From: Cyanophyceae cyanobacterium
GTDB taxonomy: Bacteria > Cyanobacteriota > Cyanobacteriia > Cyanobacteriales > JBHJGN01
Length of the DNA stretch: 64,000 nucleotides
Reading direction: 5' to 3'
Assembly: GCA_050331735.1 (NCBI GenBank)
Contig: JBHJGN010000031.1
Coordinates: 64,001-128,000 of the forward strand
Under the pieces are notes generated by a model. The model had not been told where the DNA came from. It was given only the letters and a program-made list of their open reading frames with translations, and searched no databases. The position numbers and the translations under genes are program-made. This document shows positions 37,287-57,330 of this stretch, piece after piece. Numbering within the stretch: position 1 is the stretch's first letter; the number at the start of each line of letters is the position of its first letter.

Positions 37287-39038
37287 CTAAAGCAATCCCT
37301 CGGATTTAAGCTGATTGAGAGAAAAGCTGAGTTTCTTCTCGGTCTGCTGTAGGGGTAAACACTGACGGGCTGCTTCCTGTCGCTGGAGCAAATCACCCTC
37401 CGTTGGCTGAGTCTGACAACCACGCTGGACGAGGCGCTGATGAACTTTTTCTTGCCAGAGTCTCTCTCCATCCTTCATCGCTGCAATATCGGCGGTTGGC
37501 ACTTTTACCCGCAGCTTCAGCGGGATGCCTGCCTCCTGCTTATTCTGATAGCCCGGATTAATCAGAAGACACTGACCTGTCGGAAACTTGAGTAAATCTT
37601 CCGGCGCACACAGCTTACGGATCTTTTCCTGTTCGGCCATACTAGTGTTGCTTTTTCCGGCACTTCTGCCTTTGGTTTTCTGATGCGTCTGCAACTCTTC
37701 ATCTCCTAAAAAATCAGAAAATAGCTTTGCTGACTCGTATTCTTGGGGATTAAAAATGGCTTTGCTACCGCAGCCGCCTAAAATCGCACGAGCGATTTCT
37801 CTACCGTAGGTTTTTTCTAGCTGGTTAAGATTCTGAAACCCTAGAATACTGACTAAGCCATCTTCTCGATTTTCATTGAGCCACTGAACGAGGGCAGGCA
37901 GATACAGAGTCGGTAACTCATCAAGCGCTAGCACCAGCGGGTCTTGGCGCGGCTGGCTCACGTTGCGGTTAACGAGCATGTGCAGAATACTGGCGCACAG
38001 CGGACCAACTACATCCCGCCGCTGTCGGTCCATGCCTACAATGAGTAGCTGCTTGCCTGCTAAATCTAGGGGCAGGGTGGTCTCCCCACAAAAGGCTCCC
38101 AGAATGCTTGGCTTAGCGAAGCGGGTAAAGGCGTTGTTCGCCGTAGCAATGATGCTGGCAACGGTTTTTTCAGAATCGGCAACCGACAGCAGTTGACCAA
38201 AGCTAGCCAGCACCCAAGGATTTAGTTCGCCAAGCTTTTCTGCGTTGCGCAAGCGCGCTGTCAGACTATCTAAAGACAGCAGCGCCTGACACATTAAGAT
38301 ATCGGGGTAGGGAGTGCTTTTTGCCAACAGAAACACGGCTTCAGTAAGCTGATCTCCGGCCATTGTAAAGAACGGATCGTCACTGCCTTGGGTCATCAGC
38401 TTGAAATTTTGATTGAGCACTTCGGCAATCTGACGGGCCATCTCGGCATCGGTCGGACTGCGGAGAAAATCGAGTGGGTTGCAGACGGCAGATTCCGGAA
38501 AGCCAGGAGCAAAGATGTGCAGTTTGTATCCGGCTTTAAGGGCGTAAGCGGCTAAACGCGAAGTTTGGGTCGGGTATTTGAAGTCATAGAGAATAATCGG
38601 AAAGCCGCGATCGACAGCAGAACGCAGCACGGGATCGATGATGCTAAAGGTTTTACCAGACCCAGGACCACCGCAGACGGCTAAACCTCGCTGCAAATCC
38701 GGTAAATAAAGGGTTTGCTTTGATGGCGATGTCTGCGGACGGCCAACATAGAGAGAGACAGCGTTGCGGCGATTTTCCCGAATTTGAGCGCAAGCCAAAC
38801 GGCGAGCCGCCGCTGTTTCCGGCTTGCCGCCAAAATGAGCGTTGGCCTGCTTTTGGCGACGACGGCGATCGCCAAGGACAGAGAGACTCCCCAAACCAAT
38901 CAGACAGGCTAGCAGAATCAGACTATTGCTATTCAATAGCTCTTGGAAATTATCGGGGACTGGCAGCTCAACAGCTTGAGCTAAATGCCCACTGTTGGGC
39001 ATCTCTATTCTCGAGTTCTCCTCGACATTTCTAACCAT
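37287..39038 (-). CDS. virD4: Type IV coupling protein (VirD4/TraG/TraD-like)
   Basis: N-terminal TM; Walker A GGPGSGKT, YDFK, Walker B LDELP, GFQNLNQLEKTYG, FSDFLGDEE. Confidence 0.9.
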   Translation of the reverse strand: MVRNVEENSRIEMPNSGHLAQAVELPVPDNFQELLNSNSLILLACLIGLGSLSVLGDRRRRQKQANAHFGGKPETAAARRLACAQIRENRRNAVSLYVGRPQTSPSKQTLYLPDLQRGLAVCGGPGSGKTFSIIDPVLRSAVDRGFPIILYDFKYPTQTSRLAAYALKAGYKLHIFAPGFPESAVCNPLDFLRSPTDAEMARQIAEVLNQNFKLMTQGSDDPFFTMAGDQLTEAVFLLAKSTPYPDILMCQALLSLDSLTARLRNAEKLGELNPWVLASFGQLLSVADSEKTVASIIATANNAFTRFAKPSILGAFCGETTLPLDLAGKQLLIVGMDRQRRDVVGPLCASILHMLVNRNVSQPRQDPLVLALDELPTLYLPALVQWLNENREDGLVSILGFQNLNQLEKTYGREIARAILGGCGSKAIFNPQEYESAKLFSDFLGDEELQTHQKTKGRSAGKSNTSMAEQEKIRKLCAPEDLLKFPTGQCLLINPGYQNKQEAGIPLKLRVKVPTADIAAMKDGERLWQEKVHQRLVQRGCQTQPTEGDLLQRQEAARQCLPLQQTEKKLSFSLNQLKSEGLL

Positions 39039-39547: not shown

Positions 39548-40147
39548 ATGAAAAAAATCTCAAATGCACTCAGTAAATTCAAACAGCTTCGACTGACCAA
39601 ATACCAGCTTTGGCTCTGTGCGGCTCTTGTCGCCTGTGTCTATCTGTTAATTAACCACGCTACTGCCTTTACCTATTTAGGAGTTCCGCTCGCGTTAGGA
39701 ATTTTGATGTGGAAAGACCTGTGGCGGCAGACCGCTAAAGCCGTTGGTCCGGGGGGTAAATATATCCCAGAAATCGTTGCAGCCGTTGCGGCGATCGCTC
39801 TAATTTGGGGAGTGGGGATCGCTGAACCAGTGGGAGCGCAATTTTACCAGGATGCTCAAAACTTCTTTTGTGAGGAGCTAGTGGCTGGTACAGGTTCAGA
39901 CACCGAGAACGTGAAACGAGGCATTTCTGTCACCTTCAATGCGCTACGAGCCTTCTTCCTGATTTACATTGCCGTCTCCCTGATTCGAGTTGTCAATGCG
40001 GTGCGAGAAGATGAAGATTGGCAGACGATGGCGAGAACGCCAATTCTGGCCACTCTCATTGTCACAGTCGGAGATTTGCTCACCAACTTCTTTATCTCTG
40101 GCGACCCCAGCGACGGTGCCTGTGACACGGGCGGTAGTGGAGGATAA
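39548..40147 (+). CDS. T4SS pilin-like membrane protein (VirB2-like, cyanobacterial type)
   Basis: Leader ending AEPVGA-QF, then two hydrophobic helices around FNALRAFFLIYIAVSLIRVVNAVREDEDWQTMARTP; first gene of the operon. Confidence 0.65.
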   Translation: MKKISNALSKFKQLRLTKYQLWLCAALVACVYLLINHATAFTYLGVPLALGILMWKDLWRQTAKAVGPGGKYIPEIVAAVAAIALIWGVGIAEPVGAQFYQDAQNFFCEELVAGTGSDTENVKRGISVTFNALRAFFLIYIAVSLIRVVNAVREDEDWQTMARTPILATLIVTVGDLLTNFFISGDPSDGACDTGGSGG

Positions 40148-40162
40148 GCTTTAGTCACTGCT

Positions 40163-40531
40163 ATGCCTTCAGAGCGCTCTCAACCGATTAAAGTTAACCG
40201 CATTCTTGGAACTCAACCTCGTCTCGGACCTCTCCCTGCCGATCAAGTTCTGCCTTGGTCTCTATTCACTCTATTTTCCTACTTCATCTGTCAGGGATAC
40301 TACGACTTCGGCTGGCTGCCCATGGTGTTGCTAGATGGATGGCTCATTTCCACCTGGTGGATTCTCACTGGAGAGAGAAGCTGGCGTTTCCTGTCTAAGA
40401 TCTATCCTCCGGTTCCTCGGTGGGAGCGAGGTTGCCCCAAATACCACAGTTTTTTAGAAGATCACCGCTCATGGCACAAACCAAGAAGAAACTCGGCAAA
40501 AAGAGGGTCGGTTTCAAGAAGAACAAAGTAA
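40163..40531 (+). CDS. T4SS VirB3-like small membrane protein
   Basis: VNRILGTQPRLGPLPADQVLPW, two TMs, TWWILTGERSWRFLSK; directly precedes and overlaps the VirB4-like gene. Confidence 0.65.
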   Translation: MPSERSQPIKVNRILGTQPRLGPLPADQVLPWSLFTLFSYFICQGYYDFGWLPMVLLDGWLISTWWILTGERSWRFLSKIYPPVPRWERGCPKYHSFLEDHRSWHKPRRNSAKRGSVSRRTK

Positions 40532-43278
40532 CCCTCTCCCCGTTTGAAGATTTTCTGCATCTTGCTGCTCTCGTTCGGATTGCTTTAAGAGGTCGCCGAG
40601 TCGGAGCCTATCTACTGACCAAGGGACAAGGCAAAAGCCTGCGCTTTGTCTTTGGGTTTGAGTGTCAGGGCATTCACGCCACGCCTCGCTCCTCAGAAAC
40701 CGTGGAGACTGTCTTTAGTAACTTAGAGTCTGGCTTAAAAGAACTGCCCGGCGGCGAACTCCTCACGATCCACATGGGGTCATTCCGCGAGGAACGTCAG
40801 CGACAGGCTGAACTCGCTTCTCTGGTCCGCCACGCGCCCAACCTGGAGTCAAAATTTTTGCTAACCGGAGAACGCGCGCGAGTCCAGGAATTGACTCGAC
40901 TCGGCGTTCGCAAAGAGAAGTTCATTCGCATCTATGTAACCTACACTATTGAAACGGGTAACGTCGGCGCTCAAGATGCGGTAGAGAAGATCCTGGCACA
41001 GATGCAGGGAGTGTGGCATCGGTACACGGGTCAAAGAGAAGAAATGAAACAACGCCAGCTTCAGGAAAGTTTCACCCTAGCTTTTACTGACGGCTTTTGC
41101 CGCTGGGAGCAGATTCTCACCAATAAAATGGGGCTACCGCTGCGCCCCCTCGACGAGCAAGAACTGTGGGATGGTCTTTGGTCGCGATTCAACAGCAGCG
41201 AACCGACGCCGATTCCGCAACTGATTACGCTTGATAGTCGGGGCATAGCAGAAGAAATCAGAACAAAAACTCATGCAACCACGCTACTGCTCAGAGATCA
41301 TCTGCCGCAGGCAAGCGAATCTTGGCTAAAAGTTAAAGATCGCTACGTCGGCGCACTGACGTTTTTAGAAAAGCCAAGCGGTTGGGCCAATCGGTTAGCT
41401 CAGCTTCGCTATGTCTGGAACGTCATGGCCCGCGAACAGGTGCAGGATACCGAAGTATTTTGTCAATTGGCTCCAGCCAATCCTAAATTAGTGCAAATTG
41501 CCGTACAGCGGCTCCTCAAGCAATCTATCGTCACGGCTGACCTTGCCGAAGAGAAACAGTCGGCGGATGTGGCAGCGAAAGTTAAAGCCGAGCGCTCCTA
41601 CGAAGCGCAAAAGCAGATGTACGAAGGGGCGACTCCTCTCTACACGGGCATGACTATTTTAGTTCACCGCGATCGCCTCAGCGACCTCGATGAAGCCTGT
41701 CGCTTTCTCGAATCCTGCTTTCAACGTCCGGCTTGGGTGACGCGCGAGCTGAACTACACCTGGAAGATTTGGCTCCAAACTTTACCGATAGTGTGGGAGC
41801 GCCTGCTGGCCGTTCCCTATGACCGTCGCCAGCTCTACCTCAGCGATGAAGCCCCCGCTTTCATGCCGTTGGTGACAACGCAATCGCTCGATAAGCAGGG
41901 CTTTCAGCTCATTGCCGATGAGGGAGGAGCACCTATTTATATTGACTTATTCACGCAGCACCGCAACCTGGCTCTGTTTGCCACTACTCGTGCCGGCAAA
42001 TCGGTGCTTGTTGCCGATATCCTCAAGCAAGCATTAGCTCACCAGATGCCCATCGTGGCCATCGACTTCCCAAAGCCAGACGGCAGCAGTACTTTTACCG
42101 ACTTTACCCACTTTATGGCTCACAACGGAGCCTACTTCGATATTTCCCGCGAGTTCAACAATCTCTTTGAGAAACCCGACTTGCGGGTTTTAGAGCCTGA
42201 CGAACAGGAGTCCCGCTTTCTCGACTACCGCGACTTCCTAGAAGGAGCGCTGATGACAATGGTAGGCGGGAATAGTCGAGACCCGTTACTGGGTCAAACA
42301 ATTCGGTCTTTACTCAATTTGGCCCTCAACGCCTTCTTTGCCGATTCCCACATTGACCAGCGATATCAAGCCGCTCTAGAAGCGGGAATCGGCTCACCCG
42401 CGTGGCACAATATTCCCACTCTTCGAGACTTCCTTGAATTCTGTTCTCCGCAGCATCTCAATTTAGAATCAATTTCCGGCAACGTCAACGAAGCTCTTCA
42501 GCAAATTATCCTGCGCCTTCAGTTTTGGCTCGGCAGTCGCGTCGGTCGAGCGATTTCGCGTCCTTCGAGCTTTCCGACTAATGCTCAACTGATCGTCTTT
42601 GCGCTAACGAATCTATCCAACGAAGAAGATGCGGCGATTTTAGCGCTGTCGGCGTACTCAGCCGCGTTGCGTCGCGCCCTTGCTGCCCCTGCGTCTATCT
42701 TTTTCATTGATGAAGCCCCCATTCTCTTTGAATTTGAGGAAATTGCTAGCTTGGTGGGGAGGCTGTGCGCAAACGGTGCTAAAGCCGGAGTTCGAGTCAT
42801 TCTCAGCGCTCAAGACCCCGATACCATTGCTAAATCGCAACATTCATCGAAGATCTTCCAAAACCTCAGCACCAGATTAATTGGTCGCATTCAACCAGCA
42901 GCGGTGGAGAGCTTCGAGCGCATTCTTAAGTATCCGCGCGAGATCGTTGCCAAAAATGCTGGCGAAAGCTTCTTTCCGTCTCGCTCAGGAATCTACAGTC
43001 AGTGGCTGCTTGATATTGATGGTCTTTACACCTACTGTCGCTTCTATCCCGCTTACGTCCTGCTGGCAGCAGTGGCGAACAACCCAGATGAGCAGATTGT
43101 GCGTCGCTGGTTCTTGCAGCACTACGAGGATAAGTTTATTGCGCTGACAGAGTTTGCCAAACATTTAGTCAACTCGATTCGCAACGGTCAACCCCTGCGT
43201 ATTCCTCAGCAAGCACCGCAACCTCTTCTTGACGTTTCATCTGAACTGAAAAGCTTGAACGGAGCTGGTTCTAAATAG
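40471..43278 (+). CDS. virB4: VirB4-like T4SS ATPase
   Basis: About 935 aa; Walker A ATTRAGKS, Walker B FFIDEAP, GAKAGVRVILSAQD; start MAQTKKK at 40471. Confidence 0.85.
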   Translation: MAQTKKKLGKKRVGFKKNKVTLSPFEDFLHLAALVRIALRGRRVGAYLLTKGQGKSLRFVFGFECQGIHATPRSSETVETVFSNLESGLKELPGGELLTIHMGSFREERQRQAELASLVRHAPNLESKFLLTGERARVQELTRLGVRKEKFIRIYVTYTIETGNVGAQDAVEKILAQMQGVWHRYTGQREEMKQRQLQESFTLAFTDGFCRWEQILTNKMGLPLRPLDEQELWDGLWSRFNSSEPTPIPQLITLDSRGIAEEIRTKTHATTLLLRDHLPQASESWLKVKDRYVGALTFLEKPSGWANRLAQLRYVWNVMAREQVQDTEVFCQLAPANPKLVQIAVQRLLKQSIVTADLAEEKQSADVAAKVKAERSYEAQKQMYEGATPLYTGMTILVHRDRLSDLDEACRFLESCFQRPAWVTRELNYTWKIWLQTLPIVWERLLAVPYDRRQLYLSDEAPAFMPLVTTQSLDKQGFQLIADEGGAPIYIDLFTQHRNLALFATTRAGKSVLVADILKQALAHQMPIVAIDFPKPDGSSTFTDFTHFMAHNGAYFDISREFNNLFEKPDLRVLEPDEQESRFLDYRDFLEGALMTMVGGNSRDPLLGQTIRSLLNLALNAFFADSHIDQRYQAALEAGIGSPAWHNIPTLRDFLEFCSPQHLNLESISGNVNEALQQIILRLQFWLGSRVGRAISRPSSFPTNAQLIVFALTNLSNEEDAAILALSAYSAALRRALAAPASIFFIDEAPILFEFEEIASLVGRLCANGAKAGVRVILSAQDPDTIAKSQHSSKIFQNLSTRLIGRIQPAAVESFERILKYPREIVAKNAGESFFPSRSGIYSQWLLDIDGLYTYCRFYPAYVLLAAVANNPDEQIVRRWFLQHYEDKFIALTEFAKHLVNSIRNGQPLRIPQQAPQPLLDVSSELKSLNGAGSK

Positions 43279-43324: not shown

Positions 43325-43777
43325 ATGTTTCAACAATTTAAAAGCCTACGCCGAATAGCCGTCGCCTTCCTCTTGCTGGCTGCTGCGACGGTAATTTTAG
43401 AGCGCCATTGGGCGATCGCTAATTCACCCTCAACCCTTCCACCACACGAGGAAACTATGTTTCGGTTTGAAAATTTCGATCGCGCCGGCAACGACCGAGA
43501 AATTGAGCAGGCAATCAAGAAACGGCTGCTTGACATGCATCCCATTGGTTCTGATCCTGATGAGCTAATCGAAAGTCTAGAAGCTGCTGAAGCTTACTGT
43601 CGCGATGAGTCATCCCAGGACCAAGAATTTTCTACGCATCTGTGTCGGTATCGATACCCTCTTGGCATTCCCGTCAGCAACCCTCGGTTTACGGCAGAAG
43701 CGTTTCGGTCAGTCACAATTTACTACGACGAAACTGGCATTGTTGATATTGAAGTGAGCGTTGCTCATACTGCATAG
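43325..43777 (+). CDS. Exported hypothetical protein (candidate immunity protein)
   Basis: AGGAG RBS; signal-peptide-like N-terminus; FRFENF...LLDMHPIGSDPDELIESLE..A.C...C.Y core with two Cys. Confidence 0.8.
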   Translation: MFQQFKSLRRIAVAFLLLAAATVILERHWAIANSPSTLPPHEETMFRFENFDRAGNDREIEQAIKKRLLDMHPIGSDPDELIESLEAAEAYCRDESSQDQEFSTHLCRYRYPLGIPVSNPRFTAEAFRSVTIYYDETGIVDIEVSVAHTA

Positions 43778-43822
43778 CTTTCATAGCTAAGAACATCCAG
43801 GATTGGAATAGGAGTGCGCTAA

Positions 43823-44698
43823 ATGGGACATAAAATCGAGGTCAGATCCTACGAAATTGACCAGCTAGACGAAACAGAGAACAATAATTGGTTTAATCGC
43901 GCTGTTGATGCAAGTCATGCTTTTATTGTGTATGCAGATGACCAAGGCAATGAGCAAATTCTGCGAGGCGGACCGAATCCAGAGACGGGCAACATTTTAG
44001 CGAATTACGGAGAATACAGTCAAAACGGTGTAGATGGAACGAACCCCGTTAGTTGGAGAGGCGAACCGCTGCGAGAAACACCAAGAGAAATTCGCTCTGT
44101 TGTGGTTGCTGAGGGAGGAGCAGAACTCGCCGCCGTTTTTGCCGCGATGAAGGAGCAGGCAGACGCAATTAATAAGGCACGAATTCCCTACATTGCTTGG
44201 GGACACAACGTCCAAAACAGTAACTCGGTTGTCGCTACGGTACTAGAAGAAGTTGGACTAGAGCCGAATTTTCCTCCGGGTTGGCACCCTGGGAGGAACG
44301 TCAATCTACTGGAGGAACATTTTCGGCAAGGAAATTCCAAACCAAGCAGCGCTCCTGCCTCTAGCCCATCACCAAAGGGTGAATCTAAGCCCACTGCTCA
44401 GCTACCTGCTAATGCTTACGAACAGGTTGCTGCTTACGTGCGTAATGCTTTAGCTAGTCCCAATTTAGCTGGATTAGCACTGGACAACCGCATTGCCCAA
44501 GCACTGATCAATGGCGAGACTGATCAAGCTGCTGCCAAAATTTTGAGCCAAAGTCCTAACGCACAGCAGGCAATGCAAGCAGGAAAACAGCCGGAAGCCT
44601 TTAGCTACATTCAAGCCAGACTAGAGCAGGGAACACAGTTAAATAATCAAACAGCTCAGGTGCAGTCGAACCGCGAACCAGAAATGAGGCTAGAGTAG
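43823..44698 (+). CDS. Hypothetical protein, candidate T4SS effector
   Basis: AGGAG RBS; no signal peptide; N-terminal domain SHAFIVY..ILRGGP..PY...QNSNSVVATVL..PG, Pro/Ser linker, helical Gln-rich C-terminal domain. Confidence 0.8.
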   Translation: MGHKIEVRSYEIDQLDETENNNWFNRAVDASHAFIVYADDQGNEQILRGGPNPETGNILANYGEYSQNGVDGTNPVSWRGEPLRETPREIRSVVVAEGGAELAAVFAAMKEQADAINKARIPYIAWGHNVQNSNSVVATVLEEVGLEPNFPPGWHPGRNVNLLEEHFRQGNSKPSSAPASSPSPKGESKPTAQLPANAYEQVAAYVRNALASPNLAGLALDNRIAQALINGETDQAAAKILSQSPNAQQAMQAGKQPEAFSYIQARLEQGTQLNNQTAQVQSNREPEMRLE

Positions 44699-44935: not shown

Positions 44936-45829
44936 ATGTCCAACCAACCAAAAGCTATCAGCATTAGGAGAACTCGTCGGGTGGCGATCGCTGGTAGCCT
45001 ATCGTTAATCTTACTAGCCTGGAGCGCTAAACCTGCTAAAGCCGGAATCTTTGGTGGTTTGTTTGGCTACTTTACTAACTATATTGAAAATTTTGTCAAC
45101 GAAGTCGCATCTTACTACATCGATTATGTAGACGATTTTATTGATTACGTCGAACTGGGTGCGGATGTTTTAATGGGCAAATTAGAAGAGCGTTTACCGA
45201 GCATGATTGCAACGACAGTATTAGGCGATGACAAATGGATCGATCCAGAAACCTACAGCCCAGGAGCACTGGGATTGCCTAGCCCCATTGAGTTGACAAC
45301 ACAGATTAAAAAAGATATCTACGAAGGCAATGCAGCTTCTTTAGGTCTCGAAACCACTGCTGGCGGACGAGCCGAAGAAGAAGCAAGACGCAGCGAACGA
45401 GCGTTATCTAAAGAGATTAGTGATGCTGTATATCTAAGTCAGGAAGCTCAGGAACAGCATCAGATTAATATTGAAGAGACTCAAGCTTTGGTAGAGAGAA
45501 CTAACGAAGTTTCTAAAGCCTCAGCAGGGCTATCGGAGAAGGCGGATGCTGCCAACTCTAGTCAAGAGGTGTTGAAGCTGTTATCGCAACAAATTGCCCT
45601 TGATTCTCGGCAAAATGCCGAACTAACCTCGCTTGTCGGCAGCTTGAAAACGCAGCATTTGATGGCAACGATGGTTGAGCAAAGTCAAGTGGCGGCAGTA
45701 ATCCAGCAGTCTGAGTATTTAGCTGGACTTTACAGAAGCGAGGGTCTGAAAAAACAGATTAGCGGTGCTAATACAATTAGAGCCGGAAAAAATCTTCAGG
45801 GCTACGCGACGTTTGTCGGAGGACTGTAG
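44936..45829 (+). CDS. Exported helical T4SS component (VirB5-like)
   Basis: Signal peptide ending PAKA; GALGLP, then Gln-rich coiled coil with SSQEVLK; lies between VirB4-like and VirB6-like genes. Confidence 0.6.
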   Translation: MSNQPKAISIRRTRRVAIAGSLSLILLAWSAKPAKAGIFGGLFGYFTNYIENFVNEVASYYIDYVDDFIDYVELGADVLMGKLEERLPSMIATTVLGDDKWIDPETYSPGALGLPSPIELTTQIKKDIYEGNAASLGLETTAGGRAEEEARRSERALSKEISDAVYLSQEAQEQHQINIEETQALVERTNEVSKASAGLSEKADAANSSQEVLKLLSQQIALDSRQNAELTSLVGSLKTQHLMATMVEQSQVAAVIQQSEYLAGLYRSEGLKKQISGANTIRAGKNLQGYATFVGGL

Positions 45830-46059: not shown

Positions 46060-46785
46060 TTGATAATGATGAGATTTTTTTCTGTACGCCTAATCAGCAT
46101 AGCTGTTGTTCTGTTTCACCTTTCCCTACTAGGAGGAACGATGAGGCTGCCATCAGCACAGGCTCAATCTAACCCTCCTCTAAACTTTGACCCGACTGCC
46201 CCAACTCCTGCGCCAACTCCAACAACTTCCAATAACCAGGACTTCTTCTGCGGTCAGGGATGGGAATTTAATGGCTTTCCCTATGACTTGTTTGCCTGGG
46301 AGGAGATTCCTTGGGGTATGCCGGGAGATGAGTTTTTAAGAAGATACAAACAGCGAGTAGAGGAGTGTTCGTCAACAGTTTTTAGTGGTGAGCGAGGAAT
46401 AAATGCTACCCATTCATTTGAGAATAAGAGTCAGAAAGATCATACAACTGTATATTTTAGATTTCATGGAGAAAACAATACTCTTTCCGAAATTTATCTA
46501 AATCGTGTTCCCAGTTACATGAGAGATTATCTCTTGCAGCATTATGGAGTGCCTGCTCAAGCCAACTACACGCCAGTCAAAGTTCGTGTTGGTTGTGTTC
46601 GTGAAGGGATTGTCTGTCCTCCTGTCTTTGAATACCGAGGAGAGGAACTCTGGAGTGGAATCTGGCGGCTGTCAGAGACCTTCATTCAGTTAGGCACGCC
46701 CAATAGCATAACTATTAAACCCGTTGACTCTGACCTACAAAGTCGTCCTGTGTGCGATGAGTTTCTGATCTTCAAATTTTGTTAG
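46060..46785 (+). CDS. Exported hypothetical protein
   Basis: Signal peptide ending SAQA, Pro/Thr linker PTAPTPAPTPTT, Cys-containing globular domain; exact start uncertain. Confidence 0.7.
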   Translation: MIMMRFFSVRLISIAVVLFHLSLLGGTMRLPSAQAQSNPPLNFDPTAPTPAPTPTTSNNQDFFCGQGWEFNGFPYDLFAWEEIPWGMPGDEFLRRYKQRVEECSSTVFSGERGINATHSFENKSQKDHTTVYFRFHGENNTLSEIYLNRVPSYMRDYLLQHYGVPAQANYTPVKVRVGCVREGIVCPPVFEYRGEELWSGIWRLSETFIQLGTPNSITIKPVDSDLQSRPVCDEFLIFKFC

Positions 46786-48035
46786 CCATGCTTCCAGGAG
46801 TAGTAAAGTTTACTCATTTATCATTCTGGCTGCTGGTGCAAGCTGGAGATACTTGTGATGGCGCTGGTAATTTTGACCTAGATCTCTCGGATCAGTTTGC
46901 TGAGGATGTCACGGTAGCAGAAAAAGTCAAGGAGAGTTTTGATGGACTGTGGGATGTGGCGCTATCTCCTACCAGTTTTGTTTATAGTTCTCTCTCTGAT
47001 ATTGGTCTACTGTTAGCAGTAGTTACCGTTACTGTGTTTATAGTACGTTGGGGGCGGGAGTTATTAGAGTCTGGAATTTCCAGTAAATCGTTTGGAGAAA
47101 TTATTTGGCCCTTAGTTGTAGCAGTTTTCTTAAGTAACAATGGACAAATTCTCGCTAGCACGACTCGCGCTATGCAGAACTACGTTCAAGAGCAGGAGGA
47201 AACAATTGTCAACGGAGCGTTTCTGGATGTGTTTATTGGAGAAACTCTTGAATCGGCTTTTCGGCAGTTAGTTGGTATCACGACAGTTCCTTTGGGCATT
47301 GGCTCGATTTTAGCTCAGTGTACTAGTCACGAAAATCCAGCGTTTTGCTTATCAGGACCACCAGTATATGAAGGAGAGGAAATTGAGAGATTTGAGTCTG
47401 GGGCGCTTCAACAGGCAATTTGTGCTTTGAATCCTTATGTAGAATCAGGAGAAAATCCTAAATTAGCTCAGCTCAGCAAAGAACTCGAAAAAGAACAAGA
47501 GAAGTTACATTCAATCCTTAAAAACGAAGTGCCAGGTTCTTCTGATGAAGAAGATACTTTCACTGTAGGCATTCCGCCTGAAATATACAAACTTATGTCT
47601 GCGAGTGAGGATTCTGGGTTGATGCAGTTCTTTATGGGGTCTGGAGCCGCATTTGTGTGGTTGACTGAACTCGCACTATTTATTACTGCCCTACTTGGAC
47701 CTCTCGCTCTTGGCTTGAGCCTGCTGCCTGTTGGCGGAAAAGCAGTCTTCGCTTGGCTGACAGGCTTCCTCTCTGTTGCTTTTGCAAAGCTGTTTTATTT
47801 CATTTTGACGGGGCTATCTTCGATTGTGGTGCTCGATGCTATTCAGGATGTGTCCCTAACAGACTTTGTGGACTCGATTCTGGTGGGAATCTTTGTCGGA
47901 GCACTGGCACCGCTGCTTTCCTTGGCAGTGTGCGTGAGCGGCGGTCGAGCGGTATTTCAAAGTTTAGTCGGCTACGTAGTTCCGGCGGTTGATTCGACGG
48001 TGCGGCGGCGGCAGATTTATCGAGCAGGAAAGTAA
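46779..48035 (+). CDS. VirB6-like polytopic T4SS membrane protein
   Basis: IIWPLVVAVFLSNNG; C-terminal TMs ELALFITALLGPLALGLSLLPVGGKAVFAWLTGF...APLLSLAV..GG. Confidence 0.75.
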   Translation: MLAMLPGVVKFTHLSFWLLVQAGDTCDGAGNFDLDLSDQFAEDVTVAEKVKESFDGLWDVALSPTSFVYSSLSDIGLLLAVVTVTVFIVRWGRELLESGISSKSFGEIIWPLVVAVFLSNNGQILASTTRAMQNYVQEQEETIVNGAFLDVFIGETLESAFRQLVGITTVPLGIGSILAQCTSHENPAFCLSGPPVYEGEEIERFESGALQQAICALNPYVESGENPKLAQLSKELEKEQEKLHSILKNEVPGSSDEEDTFTVGIPPEIYKLMSASEDSGLMQFFMGSGAAFVWLTELALFITALLGPLALGLSLLPVGGKAVFAWLTGFLSVAFAKLFYFILTGLSSIVVLDAIQDVSLTDFVDSILVGIFVGALAPLLSLAVCVSGGRAVFQSLVGYVVPAVDSTVRRRQIYRAGK

Positions 48036-48059: not shown

Positions 48060-48818
48060 TTGAGGGCTGTGGTGCAGATACTTCCAGAGAAAAAATCGAG
48101 AAACTACCTAGCGCTGTTTGTGCTGCTTACCGTGATTATGCAGGGGGCGAGTGTGCTGCTGCTGCTCTTTCAGGGGGCAATTATCAATCGCCTGAGCAAA
48201 AACCCGCCCACTCTGGTACAGCTTGTGGATGGAGAATCGATTCGCGTCGAGCCGATGGATTACCTAGAGCGTACGCCCCAAACAATCCGCGAGTTTGTTG
48301 AAGATACCATGACCATGCTAATGACCTGGTCGGGGGAACTTCCGGTCGAGTCGGCGCAGGATGAAAAGGTGCCGAGGCGCGACCCAGGAGTGACGATAGC
48401 GACGGAATCGGGTCGCTCTCAAAGGATTGCCACCTCTACCTGGCAAGCAGGATTTGCTCTTTCTGAAGACTTTCGGGTTGAGTTTTTGCAGGAACTGACT
48501 CGCCTCACTCCTCAGCGAATCTTTAGCAGAAATCAGGATACGCAGGTTGTTTTGGTGATACTCGATTTGTCTGAACCGAAGAAGATTGAAGAGGGTAAAT
48601 GGAAGCTGGCAATGGTCGCTAACTTACTGTTTTTTAGGGACGGTAGTTCCCTCGGAGAGGGAGTCCCGTTTAACAAAGAAGTTTATGTGCATACTGTCGT
48701 TGCGCCAGAAGTGCCTGATGATGCGACTCCTCTAGCTCGGAAAATTTATCAGGTGCGACAAGCTGGCTTGGAAATCTACGCCATGCGTGATTTAGAGGCG
48801 GAGGAAATTTTGGAGTAG
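48060..48818 (+). CDS. VirB8-like bitopic T4SS protein
   Basis: One N-terminal TM, PPTLVQLVDG, RTPQTIREFV...MTWSG, ALSEDFR, FNKEVYV. Confidence 0.65.
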   Translation: MRAVVQILPEKKSRNYLALFVLLTVIMQGASVLLLLFQGAIINRLSKNPPTLVQLVDGESIRVEPMDYLERTPQTIREFVEDTMTMLMTWSGELPVESAQDEKVPRRDPGVTIATESGRSQRIATSTWQAGFALSEDFRVEFLQELTRLTPQRIFSRNQDTQVVLVILDLSEPKKIEEGKWKLAMVANLLFFRDGSSLGEGVPFNKEVYVHTVVAPEVPDDATPLARKIYQVRQAGLEIYAMRDLEAEEILE

Positions 48819-48911: not shown

Positions 48912-49478
48912 GTGACAACGCTGGTTAAGTGGACGGTTGAAGACTATCACCGGATGATTGAGGCAGGTATCCTCTCCGAACGACGCTGCGAGTTAATCGG
49001 AGGAAAAATCGTTGAGATGGCGCCGGAAGGACCGCTGCATCGGTTTATCAATGAAACGGTCGGTGACTATTTACGCCAGCAATTGGGAACTGCGGCTCTC
49101 GTTTCAGAAGCTCATCCCATTACTCTCGTAGATTCAGAACCAGAACCAGATATTGCCATTATTCAACCTCCTCGGAGTCGATACAGGAATCGCCATCCTG
49201 CCCCCCAGGATATTTACTGGCTAATCGAAGTTGCCGATACGACCCTTGCTGAAGATACAGGGGAAAAATTGACAGCGTATGCTAAAGCAGGTATCCCTGA
49301 GTATTGGGTCATCGACGTTCAGCGATCGCAAGTCAAAGTCTTTCGCCAGCCCCTCGAAGAGCAATACCGAAGCGAGACAACTGTGACGGCGGGAACAGTT
49401 TCGCCACTAGCCTTTGCTGATGTTGCCATTTCTGTAGAACGATTGTTGGGGGTAAGGAATAGCGAGACTCAGCTTTAG
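48912..49478 (+). CDS. Uma2-family endonuclease
   Basis: WTVEDYHRMIEAG, SEPEPDIAI, LIEVADTT, YAKAGIPEYWVID. Confidence 0.92.
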   Translation: MTTLVKWTVEDYHRMIEAGILSERRCELIGGKIVEMAPEGPLHRFINETVGDYLRQQLGTAALVSEAHPITLVDSEPEPDIAIIQPPRSRYRNRHPAPQDIYWLIEVADTTLAEDTGEKLTAYAKAGIPEYWVIDVQRSQVKVFRQPLEEQYRSETTVTAGTVSPLAFADVAISVERLLGVRNSETQL

Positions 49479-51808: not shown

Positions 51809-53023
51809 ATGATTCATCAGCCACCAGCCGGTGCGAGAGATTTACTGCCCCTAGAAGTTGTTCAAAAGAGCTGGATTAACGATCGCCTCCAGCAGGTGTT
51901 TGCTCAGTGGGGATACCAGCGCATCGTCACGTCTACCTTAGAGTGGCTTGATACCCTGATGGCAGGAGGAGCGATCGAGCGCTCAACAGTAGTTCAGCTT
52001 CAAGATAATTCGGAGGGAACTTTAGGGCTGCGTCCAGAATTAACCGCTTCTATTGCGCGAGCAGCGGTGACGCGCATGGAAGCAAAAACCTACCCTCAGC
52101 GCCTCTGTTACCGCGCTAACGTATTTCGTCAACCCCCCGCCGGACATCACGGGCGGCAGATGGAATTTTATCAAGCTGGCGTAGAGCTGCTGTTTGCCGG
52201 GGGAGTGGTGGCAGATGCCGAAGTGTTGCTGCTGTTGGTGGACTGTTTGCATCAGCTTGGCTTGCAGCAGTGGCAGTTACTGTTAGGAGAAGTGGGCTTA
52301 ACGCGATCGCTGCTTTCCCCGTTTCCAGAGCCGTTGAAGCAGGAAATCCGACACTGCTTAGCTCATCTCGACCGCGTTGCCCTAGAAAACCTGGAACTGA
52401 CTTCAGAGCAGCAGGAGCGGGCGCTGTTGCTGTTTGACCTACGGGGACGACCAGAGGACGTGCTTCAGCAGGTGGCTCAGCTCGAACTTGACGAGACGGG
52501 ACAGCAAATTGTCCAAAACTTGAAAACGTTAGTCGAGTTACTCAACAGCAGTCGCCCCGAACCGCTGCCGCTGATTCTAGATTTGAGCCTACTGCAAACC
52601 TTTGATTACTACACAGGCATTGTGTTTGACGTCGTAAGCCGAGGCGATCGCTCTTCCCGTATCGTCGGGCAGGGAGGACGCTACGACAGGCTTTTAGGGC
52701 TGTATCATCCGCACAAGCAAGATTCTCCCGGCATTGGCTTTTCGTTCTATTTGGAAGATCTGTATACCTGTCTACTGGCTAGCAACGCGCTACCGACAGA
52801 AGCTCCTATGAGCCATTGGCTGGTGATTCCTGACTCTTCGCAAGCGGACGCGGCAGCTTTCGCCTATGCTCAAACCTTGAGAGCCGAGGGAGTCGTGCGA
52901 GTCGAGATGGAATTGAAGAGGCGATCGCCGGAGCAGATTCGAGAGTATGCGCGCCAGCGCCGCATTAAGTACTTGGCTTGGGTAAAGGGTGACGGGATTC
53001 CGAAAATTGAAGCAGTCAGCTAG
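51809..53023 (+). CDS. hisZ: ATP phosphoribosyltransferase regulatory subunit
   Basis: PAGARDLLP, LRPELTASIAR, RLCYRANVFR, EFYQAGVEL, DYYTGIVF, GGRYDRL. Confidence 0.93.
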   Translation: MIHQPPAGARDLLPLEVVQKSWINDRLQQVFAQWGYQRIVTSTLEWLDTLMAGGAIERSTVVQLQDNSEGTLGLRPELTASIARAAVTRMEAKTYPQRLCYRANVFRQPPAGHHGRQMEFYQAGVELLFAGGVVADAEVLLLLVDCLHQLGLQQWQLLLGEVGLTRSLLSPFPEPLKQEIRHCLAHLDRVALENLELTSEQQERALLLFDLRGRPEDVLQQVAQLELDETGQQIVQNLKTLVELLNSSRPEPLPLILDLSLLQTFDYYTGIVFDVVSRGDRSSRIVGQGGRYDRLLGLYHPHKQDSPGIGFSFYLEDLYTCLLASNALPTEAPMSHWLVIPDSSQADAAAFAYAQTLRAEGVVRVEMELKRRSPEQIREYARQRRIKYLAWVKGDGIPKIEAVS

Positions 53024-53076
53024 CGCCGTAGGCCCGGGAAAAAAGTTCCTACGGAACGGGGAAAAGGGGAAGGAGA
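53021..53076. repeat. Family A repeat, partial copy in opposite orientation
   Basis: TAGCGCCGTAGGCCCGGGAA...GTTCCTACGGAACGGGGAAAAGGGGAAGG is the reverse complement of the family A right half. Confidence 0.7.
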
Positions 53077-53081
53077 AAAAT

Positions 53082-53666
53082 ATGACGACTGTTACAATTC
53101 CCAAAGGATTTATAGTGACGCCGGGACAGTTTGATGAACTTGCTGATGCCAATACCGGCATTCGCCTGGAGTTAACCGCTCAAGGAGTATTGCTAGTTAT
53201 GTCGCCAACAGGGGGAACAGCAGGAAGAAGAAATTTTCGCCTTTGTCAGCAATTGGCCAATTGGGCAGAGCGAGATGAAACCGGAGTTGGCTTTGACTCA
53301 TCAACCATTTTTGTTCTGCCTAACGGCGCAAGACGTTCCCCCGATGCTGCCTGGATTCAGTTGAAACGCTGGAATACTCTCACTCAAGAAGAGCAAGACG
53401 GCTTTCCTCCGATTGCTCCTGATTTTGTGATTGAGTTAGTCAGTCCGAGCGATTTAGCAAACCAGCGCTATGAAGACTTACAGCAGAAAATGCCGGAATA
53501 TCTGGACAATGGAGTGCGCCTCGGTTGGCTCATCGAGCCGAAGACACAAACTGTTGAGATTTACCGTATGGGGCAGCCTGTTGAAGCTTTACAGAATCCG
53601 AAATCTCTTAGTGGTGAGGTGGTTTTGCCGGGATTGCTCCTCGATTTGGAGCCGATTTGGGGTTAA
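53082..53666 (+). CDS. Uma2-family endonuclease
   Basis: RLELTAQG.L.VMSPTG, FDSSTIFVLPNGARRSPDAAW, PDFVIELVSPSD, NGVRLGWLIEP; AAGGAG RBS before ATG 53082. Confidence 0.92.
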   Translation: MTTVTIPKGFIVTPGQFDELADANTGIRLELTAQGVLLVMSPTGGTAGRRNFRLCQQLANWAERDETGVGFDSSTIFVLPNGARRSPDAAWIQLKRWNTLTQEEQDGFPPIAPDFVIELVSPSDLANQRYEDLQQKMPEYLDNGVRLGWLIEPKTQTVEIYRMGQPVEALQNPKSLSGEVVLPGLLLDLEPIWG

Positions 53667-54069: not shown

Positions 54070-57000
54070 ATGAAAACAGACTTATCTTCCCTGAAACCTT
54101 CTAACCCTGTTGCCACCCTCGTTTTTATCGATGCTGGAGTTAAAAATTATCAACAGTTAGTTGATGGTGTTATTCCTAAAGCGGAAGTATTTGTCTTAGA
54201 TGCAGCGGCTGATGGTGTTGAGCAAATTAGCCATGTTTTACAGCAGCGGCAGAATGTCGGAGCTGTTCATATCGTTTCTCACGGTGCGCCAGGTGGCTTG
54301 TACTTGGGTAACACCCGATTAAGTCTTGATACTTTCAGGCACTATGCCACTCAGCTACAGAAGTGGAAGGTAGTCAATCTCTTTCTCTACGGCTGTAACG
54401 TGGCTGCTGGGGACGCAGGTGAAGAGTTTATCGAGAAGCTGCACCAGCAGACAGGAGCAAGTATAGCAGCGTCGCGTCGAGTAATCGGTGACGGGTACTG
54501 GTTCCTAGATGTTAACCCTACAGGGACGACAGCACAGACCCCATTTGATGAAGCAGTTCTAGAAAGCTGGACAGGACGACTAGCGCTAAACATCAGCAAT
54601 CTCAGTAACTCATCGTATACTGAGCAAGACCCCGCTATTATCCTAGACAGTGATATCAGCTTCTCAGGTGGGACAAACTACAGCAGCGGCTATCTTGAGT
54701 TTAGTTTAAGCACCGCTACTGCGTCTGATTTTTTAAGTTTAGTTGCTGATGACAACATTTCTACCGCTAACAACCAGATTTCTATTGTTGCTAATACAGT
54801 TTATCTCGGCGATGGCAGCGAGGCAGCAGTAGTCGGTACCGTAGATTCAACATTCGACGGTCAGAATGGAAAAAATCTACGGATTAACTTATCCACTAGT
54901 TTTCCAAACGGTAATTTCAACATTGGCTCGCCTGAAGACACAACCATCACGAGTTGGACAACGGTAAACCAGCAGGTCAAATTTGGAAACGATACAATTG
55001 CTAACTTAACTACGCCCACCGACAGCACCATTCCCTCAGACTCTAATGGGGACCAAAACACTCCTTCTAGCCCAGGGACGATGACGACAGTCCTTGATGC
55101 TACACAGAACGACGGAGGCGGAAATTCTCTTCGGCTCGCCTCTACAGGAATTACTACTGCCGAAGGATATGATATCGTTCGCGGTCCATACGTTTACAGT
55201 GATACGGCTATATCCTTGTCATCTGGCGACCAGGTGTCCTTTGAATGGCAAGCTCAAGGGGGGGGAGATGCCTATGATATTTATGGCTACATTGTTGATA
55301 TTAACAACAATCACATCGAAACTATTCTAGATGAAACAGGCAGTAGTGAATCTGCTGCTACTACTTGGGCAACGGAGACAATTACTGTTTCCCAAGCTGG
55401 TGAGTACAAATTTGTCTTTGTTGCCGGTACTTACGACTATTCTGGCGGTAAAGCTGCAGGAGCACAGCTCTACATTGACGATGTAACAGTTACTCAATCG
55501 GTCCCGTCCGCAGTTTTCGACGATACTCATGTATCTGCGCTCGCTCAGAGAGTGCAGTACAACAATACCTCAGATAGTCCTGAAACCTCAAAAACTCTCA
55601 CTGTCTCCGTTCAAAACAGCGCTGATGAGATAGTAAGCGATACGGCAACCATTGATATTACGTTAGTAAACGATGCCCCCACTGCGCTTAGCCTCAGCAG
55701 CACCAGTATTAATGAGAACAGTGCGGCGGGAAGTGCAATCGGTACTTTCAGCAGCACTGACCCTGACGCGAGCGAGACCTTCACCTATACTCTAGTGGCT
55801 GGCACTGGAGATACGGATAACAGTGCCTTTACCATTGACAGCGACCAGCTTAAAATCATCGACTCCCCCGACTACGAAGCTAAGGATAGCTATAGCATTC
55901 ACGTCCGCACCACAGATAGTGAGAACGAAATCTATGAAGAAGCGTTTACTATCAATGTCAACGATTTTAATAAAACACCCACTGCTATTGCTCTTGATAA
56001 CAACCGGGTTAACGAGAATCAAAATAGCCGCACTCTCGTCGGTACTCTTTCTACCATTGATGCCGATGACGGCGACACTCATATTTACCAGCTCGTGGGT
56101 GGGGAGGAAGATACAGATAACAGTGCCTTTACCATCGATGGTAATCAACTGAAAACTAACACTCGGCTTAACTACGAAGCTAAATCCAGCTACAGCATTC
56201 GTATCCAAACCACAGATAGCGAGAGCGAAACCTACGAAAAAACCTTTACTATCAGCGTCAACAATCTCAACGAAATCCCCAGACTCAGTTTAATCAACAC
56301 TAATACCTCCTTAGCTGAAGACATCGATACCAGCACTAGGATTAAGGTAGCAGACATCCGCATCTATGATGATGGTTTAGGAGCAGAAACCATTGCCCTG
56401 AGCGGCCCTAATGCCGACCTCTTCGAGCTGGATGGGAGAAAACTCTTTCTCAAAGCCGATACTCCTCTCAACCATGAAACCGAAGCTGAGTTAAACGTGC
56501 AGGTCTCGGTCAACGACTCCACCATCGGCTCCACACCAGACGATACTGAATCCTTGGCAATCGCCATCAGCGATGTCAATGAAGCCCCCAGCCTCAGCTT
56601 CACTAACTCTACCGCTTCATTAGCCGAAGACACCGACACCAGCACTAGGATTAAGGTAGCTGATATTGTCATTAGTGATGATGCCCTCGGCAACAACACC
56701 TTAAGCCTCAGCGGGGAAGATGCTGAGAGCTTTGAAATTGACGACAGCGCTCTGTTCCTCAAAGCCAATACCCCCCTCGACTTTGAAACCCATCCTGAGC
56801 TATCGGTCTCGCTTAGCATCGATGATGCTACCTTGGGAGATGGAGCGGAAGCAACAGAATCCTACACCCTGAATCTGATTGATATGCCAGATGACGGCCT
56901 TGAAGGGGATATTAGCTTATTCTGGTCTAACCGCGCCACCGGAGAGAACCAGCTCTGGCTCTTCACGGGACTCCAGAGGCAGTCTGTGGTATTGCCCCTT

Positions 57001-57330
57001 ACCGATACAGATTGGCAACTGCGAGACGTCGGAGACTTTAACGGAGATGACCAGTACGACCTGCTCTGGCGACACTCGGCTACCGGAGAAAACGCTGTTT
57101 GGCTGATGAACGGCACTGACTTTATTCAAAGAAGTAGTTTGCGCTCTGCTTCCAACCTCGATTGGTCCCTGGTGGGCGCGGCAGACTTCAACGGAGATGA
57201 CAAAGACGACCTACTCTGGCGACACGCGGCTACCGGGAAAAATGCTGTCTGGCTGATGGACGGCACGACTTTTATGAGCAGCAGTTCTCTGCCAGAATTC
57301 TCTGGGGCTGACTGGTCTGCGGTTGTTTAA
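54070..57330 (+). CDS. Large extracellular protein: DUF4347 + beta-sandwich + cadherin-like repeats + FG-GAP repeats
   Basis: LVFIDAGV..HIVSHGAPG..LYGCNVAAG (DUF4347); NDAPT...DPD...DYEAK cadherin repeats; GDFNGDD..DLLWRH..TG.NAVWLM repeats. Confidence 0.9.
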   Translation: MKTDLSSLKPSNPVATLVFIDAGVKNYQQLVDGVIPKAEVFVLDAAADGVEQISHVLQQRQNVGAVHIVSHGAPGGLYLGNTRLSLDTFRHYATQLQKWKVVNLFLYGCNVAAGDAGEEFIEKLHQQTGASIAASRRVIGDGYWFLDVNPTGTTAQTPFDEAVLESWTGRLALNISNLSNSSYTEQDPAIILDSDISFSGGTNYSSGYLEFSLSTATASDFLSLVADDNISTANNQISIVANTVYLGDGSEAAVVGTVDSTFDGQNGKNLRINLSTSFPNGNFNIGSPEDTTITSWTTVNQQVKFGNDTIANLTTPTDSTIPSDSNGDQNTPSSPGTMTTVLDATQNDGGGNSLRLASTGITTAEGYDIVRGPYVYSDTAISLSSGDQVSFEWQAQGGGDAYDIYGYIVDINNNHIETILDETGSSESAATTWATETITVSQAGEYKFVFVAGTYDYSGGKAAGAQLYIDDVTVTQSVPSAVFDDTHVSALAQRVQYNNTSDSPETSKTLTVSVQNSADEIVSDTATIDITLVNDAPTALSLSSTSINENSAAGSAIGTFSSTDPDASETFTYTLVAGTGDTDNSAFTIDSDQLKIIDSPDYEAKDSYSIHVRTTDSENEIYEEAFTINVNDFNKTPTAIALDNNRVNENQNSRTLVGTLSTIDADDGDTHIYQLVGGEEDTDNSAFTIDGNQLKTNTRLNYEAKSSYSIRIQTTDSESETYEKTFTISVNNLNEIPRLSLINTNTSLAEDIDTSTRIKVADIRIYDDGLGAETIALSGPNADLFELDGRKLFLKADTPLNHETEAELNVQVSVNDSTIGSTPDDTESLAIAISDVNEAPSLSFTNSTASLAEDTDTSTRIKVADIVISDDALGNNTLSLSGEDAESFEIDDSALFLKANTPLDFETHPELSVSLSIDDATLGDGAEATESYTLNLIDMPDDGLEGDISLFWSNRATGENQLWLFTGLQRQSVVLPLTDTDWQLRDVGDFNGDDQYDLLWRHSATGENAVWLMNGTDFIQRSSLRSASNLDWSLVGAADFNGDDKDDLLWRHAATGKNAVWLMDGTTFMSSSSLPEFSGADWSAVV

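Follow-up and report, generated by a model that had tools for sequence, protein, structure and literature searches.

A portable C-terminal helical module on toxin-like proteins, one of them encoded within a chromosomal type IV secretion locus of a cyanobacterium

The window analyzed here is a stretch of 64,000 nucleotides from a Cyanophyceae cyanobacterium (assembly GCA_050331735.1, contig JBHJGN010000031.1, positions 64,001 to 128,000; contig C31 below). It contains a locus for a type IV secretion system (T4SS); inside that locus is the gene tox291 (43823..44698, + strand), which encodes a modular, toxin-like protein of 291 amino acids. An AGGAG sequence lies 8 nt 5' of the tox291 ATG. The protein begins with an N-terminal domain (amino acids 1-170, 43823..44332) that is predicted to adopt the permuted papain-like NlpC/P60 / PPPDE / LRAT fold. 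This is followed by a Pro/Ser-rich linker, SKPSSAPASSPSPKGESKP in the translation (amino acids 171-189, 44333..44389), in a region where pLDDT, the AlphaFold2 confidence score, falls below 50 (residues 169-194). Next comes a helical module whose core of about 82 residues (amino acids 194-275, 44402..44647) is the conserved part common to five proteins. The protein closes with a Gln-rich, net-acidic tail ending in PEMRLE (amino acids 276-291, 44648..44698 with the stop codon). All of these segments are on the + strand. No hydrophobic N-terminal signal is visible by eye, and neither Pfam nor NCBIfam matches tox291 at E<=1. The original prediction, made from the letters alone, proposed that a C-terminal domain of this protein is a translocation signal. 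The strings it quoted are all present in the translation of 43823..44698 (SKPSSAPASSPSPKGESKP, YEQVAAYV, LDNRIAQALINGETDQAAAKILSQSPNAQQ, AFSYIQARLEQ and the terminal REPEMRLE), and the succession of Pro/Ser linker, helical module and Gln-rich tail is confirmed by translation and by AlphaFold2.

In the AlphaFold2 model, the module is composed of helices at residues 198-210, 217-231, 234-241, 245-252 and 256-281, with no strand in 194-282. Its pLDDT was 70-90 in the first model and lower in a later one. The module and tail of the carrier proteins are richer in Gln (fraction 0.11-0.17) than the whole proteins (0.06-0.10), with 4-6 Q in the last 30 residues. The ends of the other carriers, PEMALE, EELALG, PELG and PELGLG, resemble that of tox291.

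The module is known on five proteins with three unrelated types of cargo. The first type is that of tox291 and its metagenomic orthologues P0002 (78% identical) and P0003 (37% identical). The second was found when the organism's own assembly was queried with the module alone, which returned a second copy (E 1.4e-9) at the extreme C-terminus of P0004, a protein of 738 amino acids encoded on contig C83 (L003:7037-9253) and identical to P0007. In P0004, SLT, Peptidase_M23 and PG_binding_1 domains (Pfam E values 3.5e-6, 5.6e-16 and 1.8e-22) are followed by a Q/P/S linker, the module and the end PELG. The third type is represented by the metagenomic protein P0023, of 402 amino acids, in which an AHH nuclease domain (PF14412, 8.5e-13) precedes the module and the end PELGLG. 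P0023 was matched at E 3.3e-16 by a profile built without it, in a search of 1.84 billion representatives. In every carrier the module is C-terminal and comes after a linker of low complexity, and inspection by eye reveals no signal peptide in any of them. There is no room for one in P0004, since its stop-to-stop frame is just 16 codons longer than the protein.

The module is conserved more than the cargo. Between tox291 and P0003, identity is 62.2% in the module and 39.5% in the N-terminal domain, and only 1 of 23 linker residues is identical. Across cargo types, the module remains 41% (P0023) and 39% (P0007) identical to that of tox291. Smith-Waterman scores of the tox291 module against the four others are 137-363, compared with means of 30-37 for shuffled sequences (z 17-49), and none of 1000 shuffles reached any real score; an artefact of composition is ruled out by these controls. 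Invariant across the five modules are the columns L194, Y199, V206, L210, P213, G217, L220, D221, A225, N230, G231, A238, P245, Q248, A259, Y262, Q264, L267, L273, E287 and L290. When set against these columns, the spaced pattern D..IA..L..G.....IL..SP...Y of the original prediction is only roughly right. Its broader proposal, that the C-terminal module is a discrete domain and a handle for finding other effectors, has held up, in that the module retrieved both a second carrier (SLT, M23 and PG_binding_1) and a third cargo (the AHH nuclease). Such a pattern is the defining mark of effectors of the XVIPCD type. The module is a real, very rare and portable domain.

In this genome, each of the two carrier genes is preceded by a gene whose product is exported. 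Immediately upstream of tox291, at a distance of 45 nt, is o150sp (43325..43777, + strand), whose 150-amino acid product has, as read by eye, an N-terminal Sec-type signal composed of a basic region and a hydrophobic segment ending in AIA. The gene preceding P0004 encodes P0005, which carries a hydrophobic N-terminal segment and an LLSSC lipobox, likewise read by eye. No relationship was seen between o150sp and P0005, and they have no family match and no link to known immunity proteins. An exported partner beside a signal-less hydrolase is the usual layout of periplasm-acting toxins. By this layout, o150sp is a candidate periplasmic immunity protein, and the lipoprotein P0005 is a candidate immunity protein for P0004.

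Further carriers were sought widely. The exhaustive profile search of the 1.84 billion representatives gave 695 matches, nearly all to the N-terminal domain; among the best 150 of the 695, which were examined, P0023 was the addition, and module-only matches weaker than about E 1e-8 may be hidden among the 695. A protein search with the module profile, longer lengths included, gave no protein beyond the four already known, and a search with the module region of P0023 returned P0023 itself only. No third copy was found among 27,286 six-frame open reading frames (ORFs) of the organism's own genome (hmmsearch --max; next best E 0.26). No carrier was found in 400 other cyanobacterial genomes and 60 genomes of relatives. 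Here there were only five weak matches (E 0.003-0.009), which we count as chance because they are internal to unrelated ORFs and have neither a linker nor a matching tail. The module profile found no locus in genome and metagenome contigs, and tblastn of tox291 against 72,556 plasmids gave no match.

The module is probably a domain for the export or delivery of toxins that works independently of the cargo. One competing account assigns it a role unrelated to export, such as oligomerisation or the binding of a chaperone or immunity protein, or makes it the label for some other, unrecognised export route. This account draws on the isolation of the module, for which there is no homologue of known function. 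Foldseek with the first model of the module gave nothing at E<=0.001, the VIA matches to residues 188-288 are generic helical bundles (Z<=5.5), no sequence relative was found in the PDB (best E 0.043), and the ESM Atlas held no usable match. It is at odds with the placement of the module, which is strictly C-terminal, stands behind a flexible linker and has a conserved extreme end on three signal-less, toxin-type cargoes unrelated to one another, and so has the look of a delivery domain. A module for binding immunity proteins would also have to contend with the fact that the immunity candidates differ between the two loci and the module is the same. We regard the non-export account as distinctly improbable.

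Two known families were considered for the module. Its resemblance to RepB_primase_C, suggested originally from the spaced pattern, is not borne out: no Pfam match to this family was obtained with tox291 at E<=1 or with its last 121 residues at E<=10, PF22448 (RepB_primase_C) matched neither module in the genome at E<=10, and hhalign of the module profile with a genuine cyanobacterial RepB_primase_C domain gave a probability of 0.1%. The sole echo of this family is in P0024, a partial relative of the module, at residues 212-257 (E 0.027; 14.8 bits against a cut-off of 26.1), and this is not significant given that ten proteins were scanned. The other family is XVIPCD, the recognition domain of the X-Tfe effectors of the bacteria-killing T4SS of Xanthomonadales. 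Homology to it was rejected as well, since PF20410 matched neither tox291 at E<=1, nor its last 121 residues at E<=10, nor anything in the whole genome at E<=10.

The comparison with XVIPCD is instructive all the same. The passages of PMC8740702 cited here describe XVIPCD as a domain of about 120 amino acids, in which two helices pack against a three-stranded sheet, with a disordered, Gln-rich tail behind them that holds a hydrophobic and positively charged zone. According to the same passages, it binds the all-alpha domain of VirD4, its function is lost when the last 20 residues are removed, and some X-Tfe effectors are peptidoglycan hydrolases that carry PG-binding domains. The title of PMC11253643 names TfdA, a nuclease effector. 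XVIPCD and the module are both C-terminal regions of about 100-120 amino acids that follow a linker on varied signal-less cargoes. In both, a folded part precedes a Gln-rich tail, the partner genes encode exported proteins, and the domain serves as a handle for finding effectors. Unlike XVIPCD, with its alpha-alpha-beta-beta-beta fold, the module is predicted to be all-helical; the XVIPCD host system is a VirB/VirD4 T4SS of the MPF_T class, and that of tox291 is of the cyanobacterial MPF_C class. The suggestion of an XVIPCD-like tag is therefore sustained as regards the varied signal-less, toxin-type cargoes and the Gln-rich tail, and not as regards sequence or fold, in which there is no relationship. 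Similarly, the tail is like that of XVIPCD in being Gln-rich and unlike it in being net acidic. By analogy, the module appears to work like XVIPCD from outside that family.

The locus in which tox291 lies begins with a coupling protein of the VirD4/TraG/TrwB family (37287..39038, - strand; PF10412 [TrwB_AAD_bind] 2.1e-27, PF02534 4.9e-24, PF12696 6.3e-22), which is divergently transcribed and present in a single copy in the genome. On the + strand follow two small conserved T4SS genes, o199 (199 amino acids, 39548-40147) and o122 (122 amino acids, 40163-40531), and a VirB4-family ATPase of the cyanobacterial (MPF_C) type (40420..43278; TIGR00929 1.3e-9). The true start of VirB4 is probably near residue 18-22, where its relatives begin aligning. 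After o150sp and tox291 come o297 (44936..45829, + strand), a coiled-coil protein with a signal peptide, and o241 (46060..46785, + strand), a signal-peptide protein with several Cys residues and no family. A polytopic membrane protein resembling VirB6/TrbL (46779-48035, + strand; a weak TrbL match, E 0.75) and o252, a conserved protein of 252 amino acids (48060-48818, + strand), complete the locus within the window.

Eight related clusters have the gene order o199, o122, VirB4, a signal-peptide coiled-coil gene, the VirB6-like gene and o252. The VirB6-like gene, o252 and o122 are found in 8/8 of these clusters and o199 in 6/8. As o297 is the counterpart of the coiled-coil gene that abuts VirB4 in the relatives (pairwise E 1e-5) and hence belongs to the conserved parts of the T4SS, o150sp and tox291 (43325-44698) constitute a two-gene insert directly after VirB4. 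Neither o150sp nor tox291 nor o241 has a counterpart in any of the eight clusters. The last of these represents a further insert into the T4SS operon that is specific to the window; unrelated to o150sp and P0005, it could be an additional immunity protein or have an accessory role. There is no sharp break in GC composition at the two-gene insert, and promoter and terminator scans gave nothing beyond consensus-level sites. Among 400 other cyanobacterial genomes, VirB4 homologues occur in 55 (best identity 63%), the N-terminal domain of tox291 in one, as a weak and stop-interrupted match, and the module in none. These counts and the absence of tox291 from the eight clusters argue that it is accessory cargo and not a core part of the T4SS.

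The gene o252 is directly followed in the relatives by a TrbI/VirB10-like gene and a pair of conserved genes. In the present assembly the T4SS is split, and these three genes are on contig C8 (L100, 7371-10844; PF03743, 7.9e-10), among housekeeping genes. From its gene content, the system looks complete, with a coupling protein, VirB4, a VirB6-like protein, the small conserved genes and the TrbI/VirB10-like protein. No relaxase of families PF03432, PF01076, PF08751 or PF03389 was matched at E<=0.01 in the 99.98%-complete, 99-contig assembly, and the scanned ORFs of the window yielded neither a relaxase nor an integrase. No relaxase is among the carriers of the module, contrary to the original expectation. 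The locus in the window is likewise embedded in housekeeping genes, with ppa, ndhM and a PP2C gene on one side and Uma2, pentapeptide, DnaJ and hisS genes on the other.

Assignment of the locus to MPF_C is based on the published description and on the finding of homologues in genomes of cyanobacteria: VirB4 belongs to the cyanobacterial clade and is accompanied by conserved neighbors and a coupling protein. The passages of Guglielmini et al. (2014, PMC4027160) cited here present MPF_C as a presumed conjugation system on plasmids, without a VirB1 homologue. They add that, as of 2014, the cyanobacterial system had been the subject of no experimental or computational study and had no known protein substrate. 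With MPF_C of cyanobacteria the present system shares VirB4, the coupling protein, the VirB6- and VirB10-like parts and a compact gene order common to other cyanobacteria. Unlike the published plasmid systems, it is chromosomal, divided between two loci, carries a toxin-immunity-like insert and has no detected relaxase of the four families. The five closest VirB4 relatives have no coupling-protein gene inside their 20-kb windows, and several VirB4 homologues in other genomes contain one or two in-frame stops; some chromosomal VirB4 clusters may be decaying or otherwise organised. Uma2-family genes occur in the window at 15116-15844, 48912-49478 (directly after the T4SS locus) and 52989-53666, and further downstream is a gene for a 1086-amino acid DUF4347-cadherin-FG-GAP protein (54070-57330). 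Only one of the sequencing runs listed contains the stretch, a run labelled stromatolite metagenome (X1), which may be its source; no independent occurrence is known among these runs, and none of the runs listed with the stretch is an RNA run.

The position of tox291 inside the T4SS operon also accommodates a quite different role, in which the T4SS would employ the carriers to remodel the cell wall, as analogues of VirB1, and the module would dock them to a component of the machine or envelope in the producer, with no attack on other cells. Of the three cargo types, two resemble peptidoglycan hydrolases (SLT with M23, and NlpC/P60-like), and the lack of a VirB1 homologue in MPF_C, as stated in the cited passages of PMC4027160, would leave such a role vacant. 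Against this, the assembly of the machine offers no role for an AHH nuclease. Nor is tox291 required by the machine, since it is missing from 8/8 related clusters and from 55/55 other VirB4-positive genomes. Moreover, the carriers have no visible signal peptide that would take them to the producer periplasm, and their partner genes encode exported proteins, as in toxin-immunity pairs. We therefore consider a VirB1-like function quite unlikely.

The N-terminal domain of tox291 was modelled with high confidence (pLDDT about 95, with an alignment of 124 sequences). Its best VIA match (model residues 1-157) is TseH (6v98; Z 8.5, root-mean-square deviation 3.1 A over 122 aligned residues, 15% identity), followed by CLN5 (Z 7.3), PPPDE 2wp7 (7.0), Aichivirus 2A (7.0), 3kw0 (6.1), PLAAT4 (5.7) and YiiX (5.4). 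Foldseek also ranks TseH first (E 4.6e-3). These comparisons of a predicted structure place the domain in the permuted papain-like NlpC/P60 / PPPDE / LRAT fold. Residues conserved in at least 90% of the 124 sequences are H32, G50, P51, D77, Y123, N132, S133 and N134. The superfamily has a catalytic His and then a Cys at the start of a helix. This arrangement is not found here: Ser133, within an NSNS motif, begins helix 133-143 at the position of the superfamily Cys, and Ser replaces Cys in at least 90% of the 124 sequences. One close homologue, P0012, has Cys. The equivalence of Ser133 with the Cys derives from secondary structure rather than residue-level superposition.

The domain family comprises 695 representatives at E<=1e-3, and no Pfam model covers the domain in the members scanned. 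Among 19 homologues scanned with Pfam, it forms the C-terminal tip of two RHS proteins (P0083 and P0104), precedes a PT-HINT domain in one protein (P0075), and stands at the N-terminus of seven RTX proteins, some of them giant. From these arrangements, the domain behaves as a swappable polymorphic-toxin domain. TseH of Vibrio cholerae is described in the cited passages of PMC4453574 as a signal-less type VI secretion system (T6SS) effector that is toxic in the periplasm, is neutralised by the product of an adjacent immunity gene and has Rhs homologues. The tox291 domain has the same fold; like tox291, TseH is signal-less and has homologues on Rhs tips, and it is paired with an immunity gene where tox291 has a candidate. 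The tox291 domain differs from TseH in having no Pfam match and a Ser at the nucleophile position, and its delivery would be through the C-terminal module and not by a T6SS; the genome has no match to a T6SS sheath. Around distant relatives of the domain (about 30% identity), scans of genome and metagenome contigs found no T4SS genes.

Other C-terminal regions are found in this family. Homologues P0008, P0012, P0016, P0024, P0025 and P0028 have C-terminal regions different from the module and yet alike short ends when read by eye (EEQMEV, RDQMELA, REQMELA, NREIEA, MDMEYV and DKQLVA), which hints at a common extreme-C-terminal signal beneath variable helical domains. In the middle of P0004 there are two copies of a small helix-plus-strands unit (residues ~342-458, GNTYSFSQQEGELSV..., and ~470-560, GYDYNIEQRGNDLHV...). 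The unit aligns with the C-terminal part (residues 176-292) of P0006 (pairwise E 2e-6), a homologue of the N-terminal domain with the source name Anthocerotibacter panamensis and a Gln-rich tail at its end. PF20410 gave no match here at E<=10. The unit may be a second, distinct C-terminal delivery domain of the same toxin family.

The original prediction had also proposed that the module is a VirD4-binding tag. A complex was predicted between residues 90-582 of the coupling protein (28-row alignment) and residues 186-291 of tox291 (5 rows). It scored 0.38 (runs 0.23, 0.44 and 0.38), compared with 0.00 for the best of three controls. The runs agree in at least 70% of contacts, and pLDDT of the partners is at least 74. 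The complex passes a mark that in a benchmark was reached by 116/157 solved complexes and 2/215 mismatched pairs; at scores of 0.60 or under, it was reached by 18/157 solved complexes and by both of the passing mismatches. These counts hold only roughly here, custom alignments having been used. The prediction raises the odds of binding modestly and lends the tag idea weak support as far as the complex with the 37287-39038 protein is concerned; dependence on the T4SS is still inference.

Taken together, the results lead us to propose that tox291 is an antibacterial effector in two parts. The N-terminal domain would be an NlpC/P60-like hydrolase, a His-Ser variant of the TseH/PPPDE fold, that probably acts in the periplasm of the target cell. 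The helical module and the Gln-rich acidic tail would together form a domain for recognition and translocation, whatever the cargo. Through its binding by the coupling protein (37287-39038) of the neighboring chromosomal MPF_C T4SS, this domain would direct the signal-less toxin to the secretion system, which would export it into neighboring cells, and the upstream exported proteins, o150sp for tox291 and the lipoprotein P0005 for P0004, would protect the producer. The scheme parallels XVIPCD, X-Tfe and X-Tfi of Xanthomonas, with an unrelated domain and a different class of T4SS. Of all this, the analysis has shown the modular build, the occurrence of the module on several cargoes, the toxin-type folds and families of those cargoes and the insertion into the T4SS operon, and secretion, T4SS dependence, binding to the coupling protein, toxicity and immunity are inferred. 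Whether the module is in fact a T4SS effector-recognition domain, analogous and not homologous to XVIPCD, seems to us evenly balanced.

A number of observations weigh against the T4SS part of this proposal, several of them by favoring another exit. The module and tail might be a non-RTX signal for a type I secretion system (T1SS), by which the carriers would leave through HlyB/HlyD/TolC-type machinery as diffusible or surface bacteriocins, the position of tox291 in the T4SS operon being incidental. T1SS signals are C-terminal, and a toxin domain at the N-terminus with an export signal at the C-terminus, as in RTX/T1SS substrates, is a design used within the N-terminal domain family. Distant homologues of the domain have RTX repeats (the 7/19 scanned), most of 14 proteobacterial loci of the domain, and several further homologues, end in D-hydrophobic tails of the T1SS type, and the carrier ends, E-M/L-x-L-E/G, are likewise acid plus hydrophobic. 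The genome encodes a HlyB-type T1SS ABC exporter (772.8 bits, above the curated cut-off). On the other hand, tox291 has no RTX repeats (no HemolysinCabind match at E<=1), and the module is a folded domain of about 80 amino acids conserved at 39-62% across cargoes, when T1SS signals are generally poorly conserved in sequence. The neighbors of tox291 are T4SS genes. The T1SS ABC gene is adjacent to neither carrier gene, and the nearest ABC exporter-like gene of the window is about 24 kb away (18306-20030). For the nuclease cargo of P0023, delivery has to reach the cytoplasm of the target, something that plain T1SS export does not achieve, and the coupling-protein complex, at 0.38 against 0.00 for controls, adds a weak point in the same direction. 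On balance, a T1SS signal seems unlikely, though it is the foremost of the rival readings and a live one.

Returning to the proposed T4SS tag, its distribution is a further difficulty. The module is absent from all 55 of the other VirB4-positive cyanobacterial genomes sampled, so that no co-occurrence statistic is possible, and the idea that it is a general tag of MPF_C-positive genomes must be abandoned. Only five carriers are known, with genomic context from one genome only, and in that genome P0004 is not near T4SS genes on its contig. In a 99-contig assembly, the assignment of both carriers to the same genome rests on binning; contigs C83 and C31 do agree in GC (0.490 and 0.489), HIP1 frequency (0.81 and 0.79 per kb) and tetranucleotide composition (r 0.968, equal to the median among contigs). 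At scores as low as that of the complex, most passes are wrong, except where the guess was already a likely one. Finally, the replacement of the catalytic Cys by Ser leaves the activity of the N-terminal domain in doubt, and the signal peptides and lipobox were read by eye.

In the cited passages of PMC8740702, XVIPCD is the only effector-recognition domain described for bacteria-killing T4SSs, in three proteobacterial orders. No paper on cyanobacterial T4SS effectors was found among the full-text literature matches listed; one candidate, PMC13756078, was set aside, as its "T4SS" is type IV pilus machinery. We tentatively suggest, at a confidence somewhat short of even, that the system in the window is the first interbacterial toxin-injecting T4SS outside Proteobacteria: a chromosomal MPF_C system with no relaxase found and its own, non-XVIPCD recognition domain, delivering at least an SLT-M23 murein hydrolase and a hydrolase like TseH (with an AHH nuclease as the cargo in a relative), the upstream genes encoding periplasmic immunity proteins.

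Apart from the question of export, the N-terminal domain defines a large toxin family that lies outside Pfam coverage and has Ser for the usual catalytic Cys. If the module is a tag for the coupling protein, T4SS-mediated antagonism would have had a separate origin in a second phylum, where another fold serves for recognition. Chromosomal cyanobacterial T4SSs without relaxases would then gain a testable function, and the module itself would provide a compact tag of about 100 amino acids for testing protein export in cyanobacteria.

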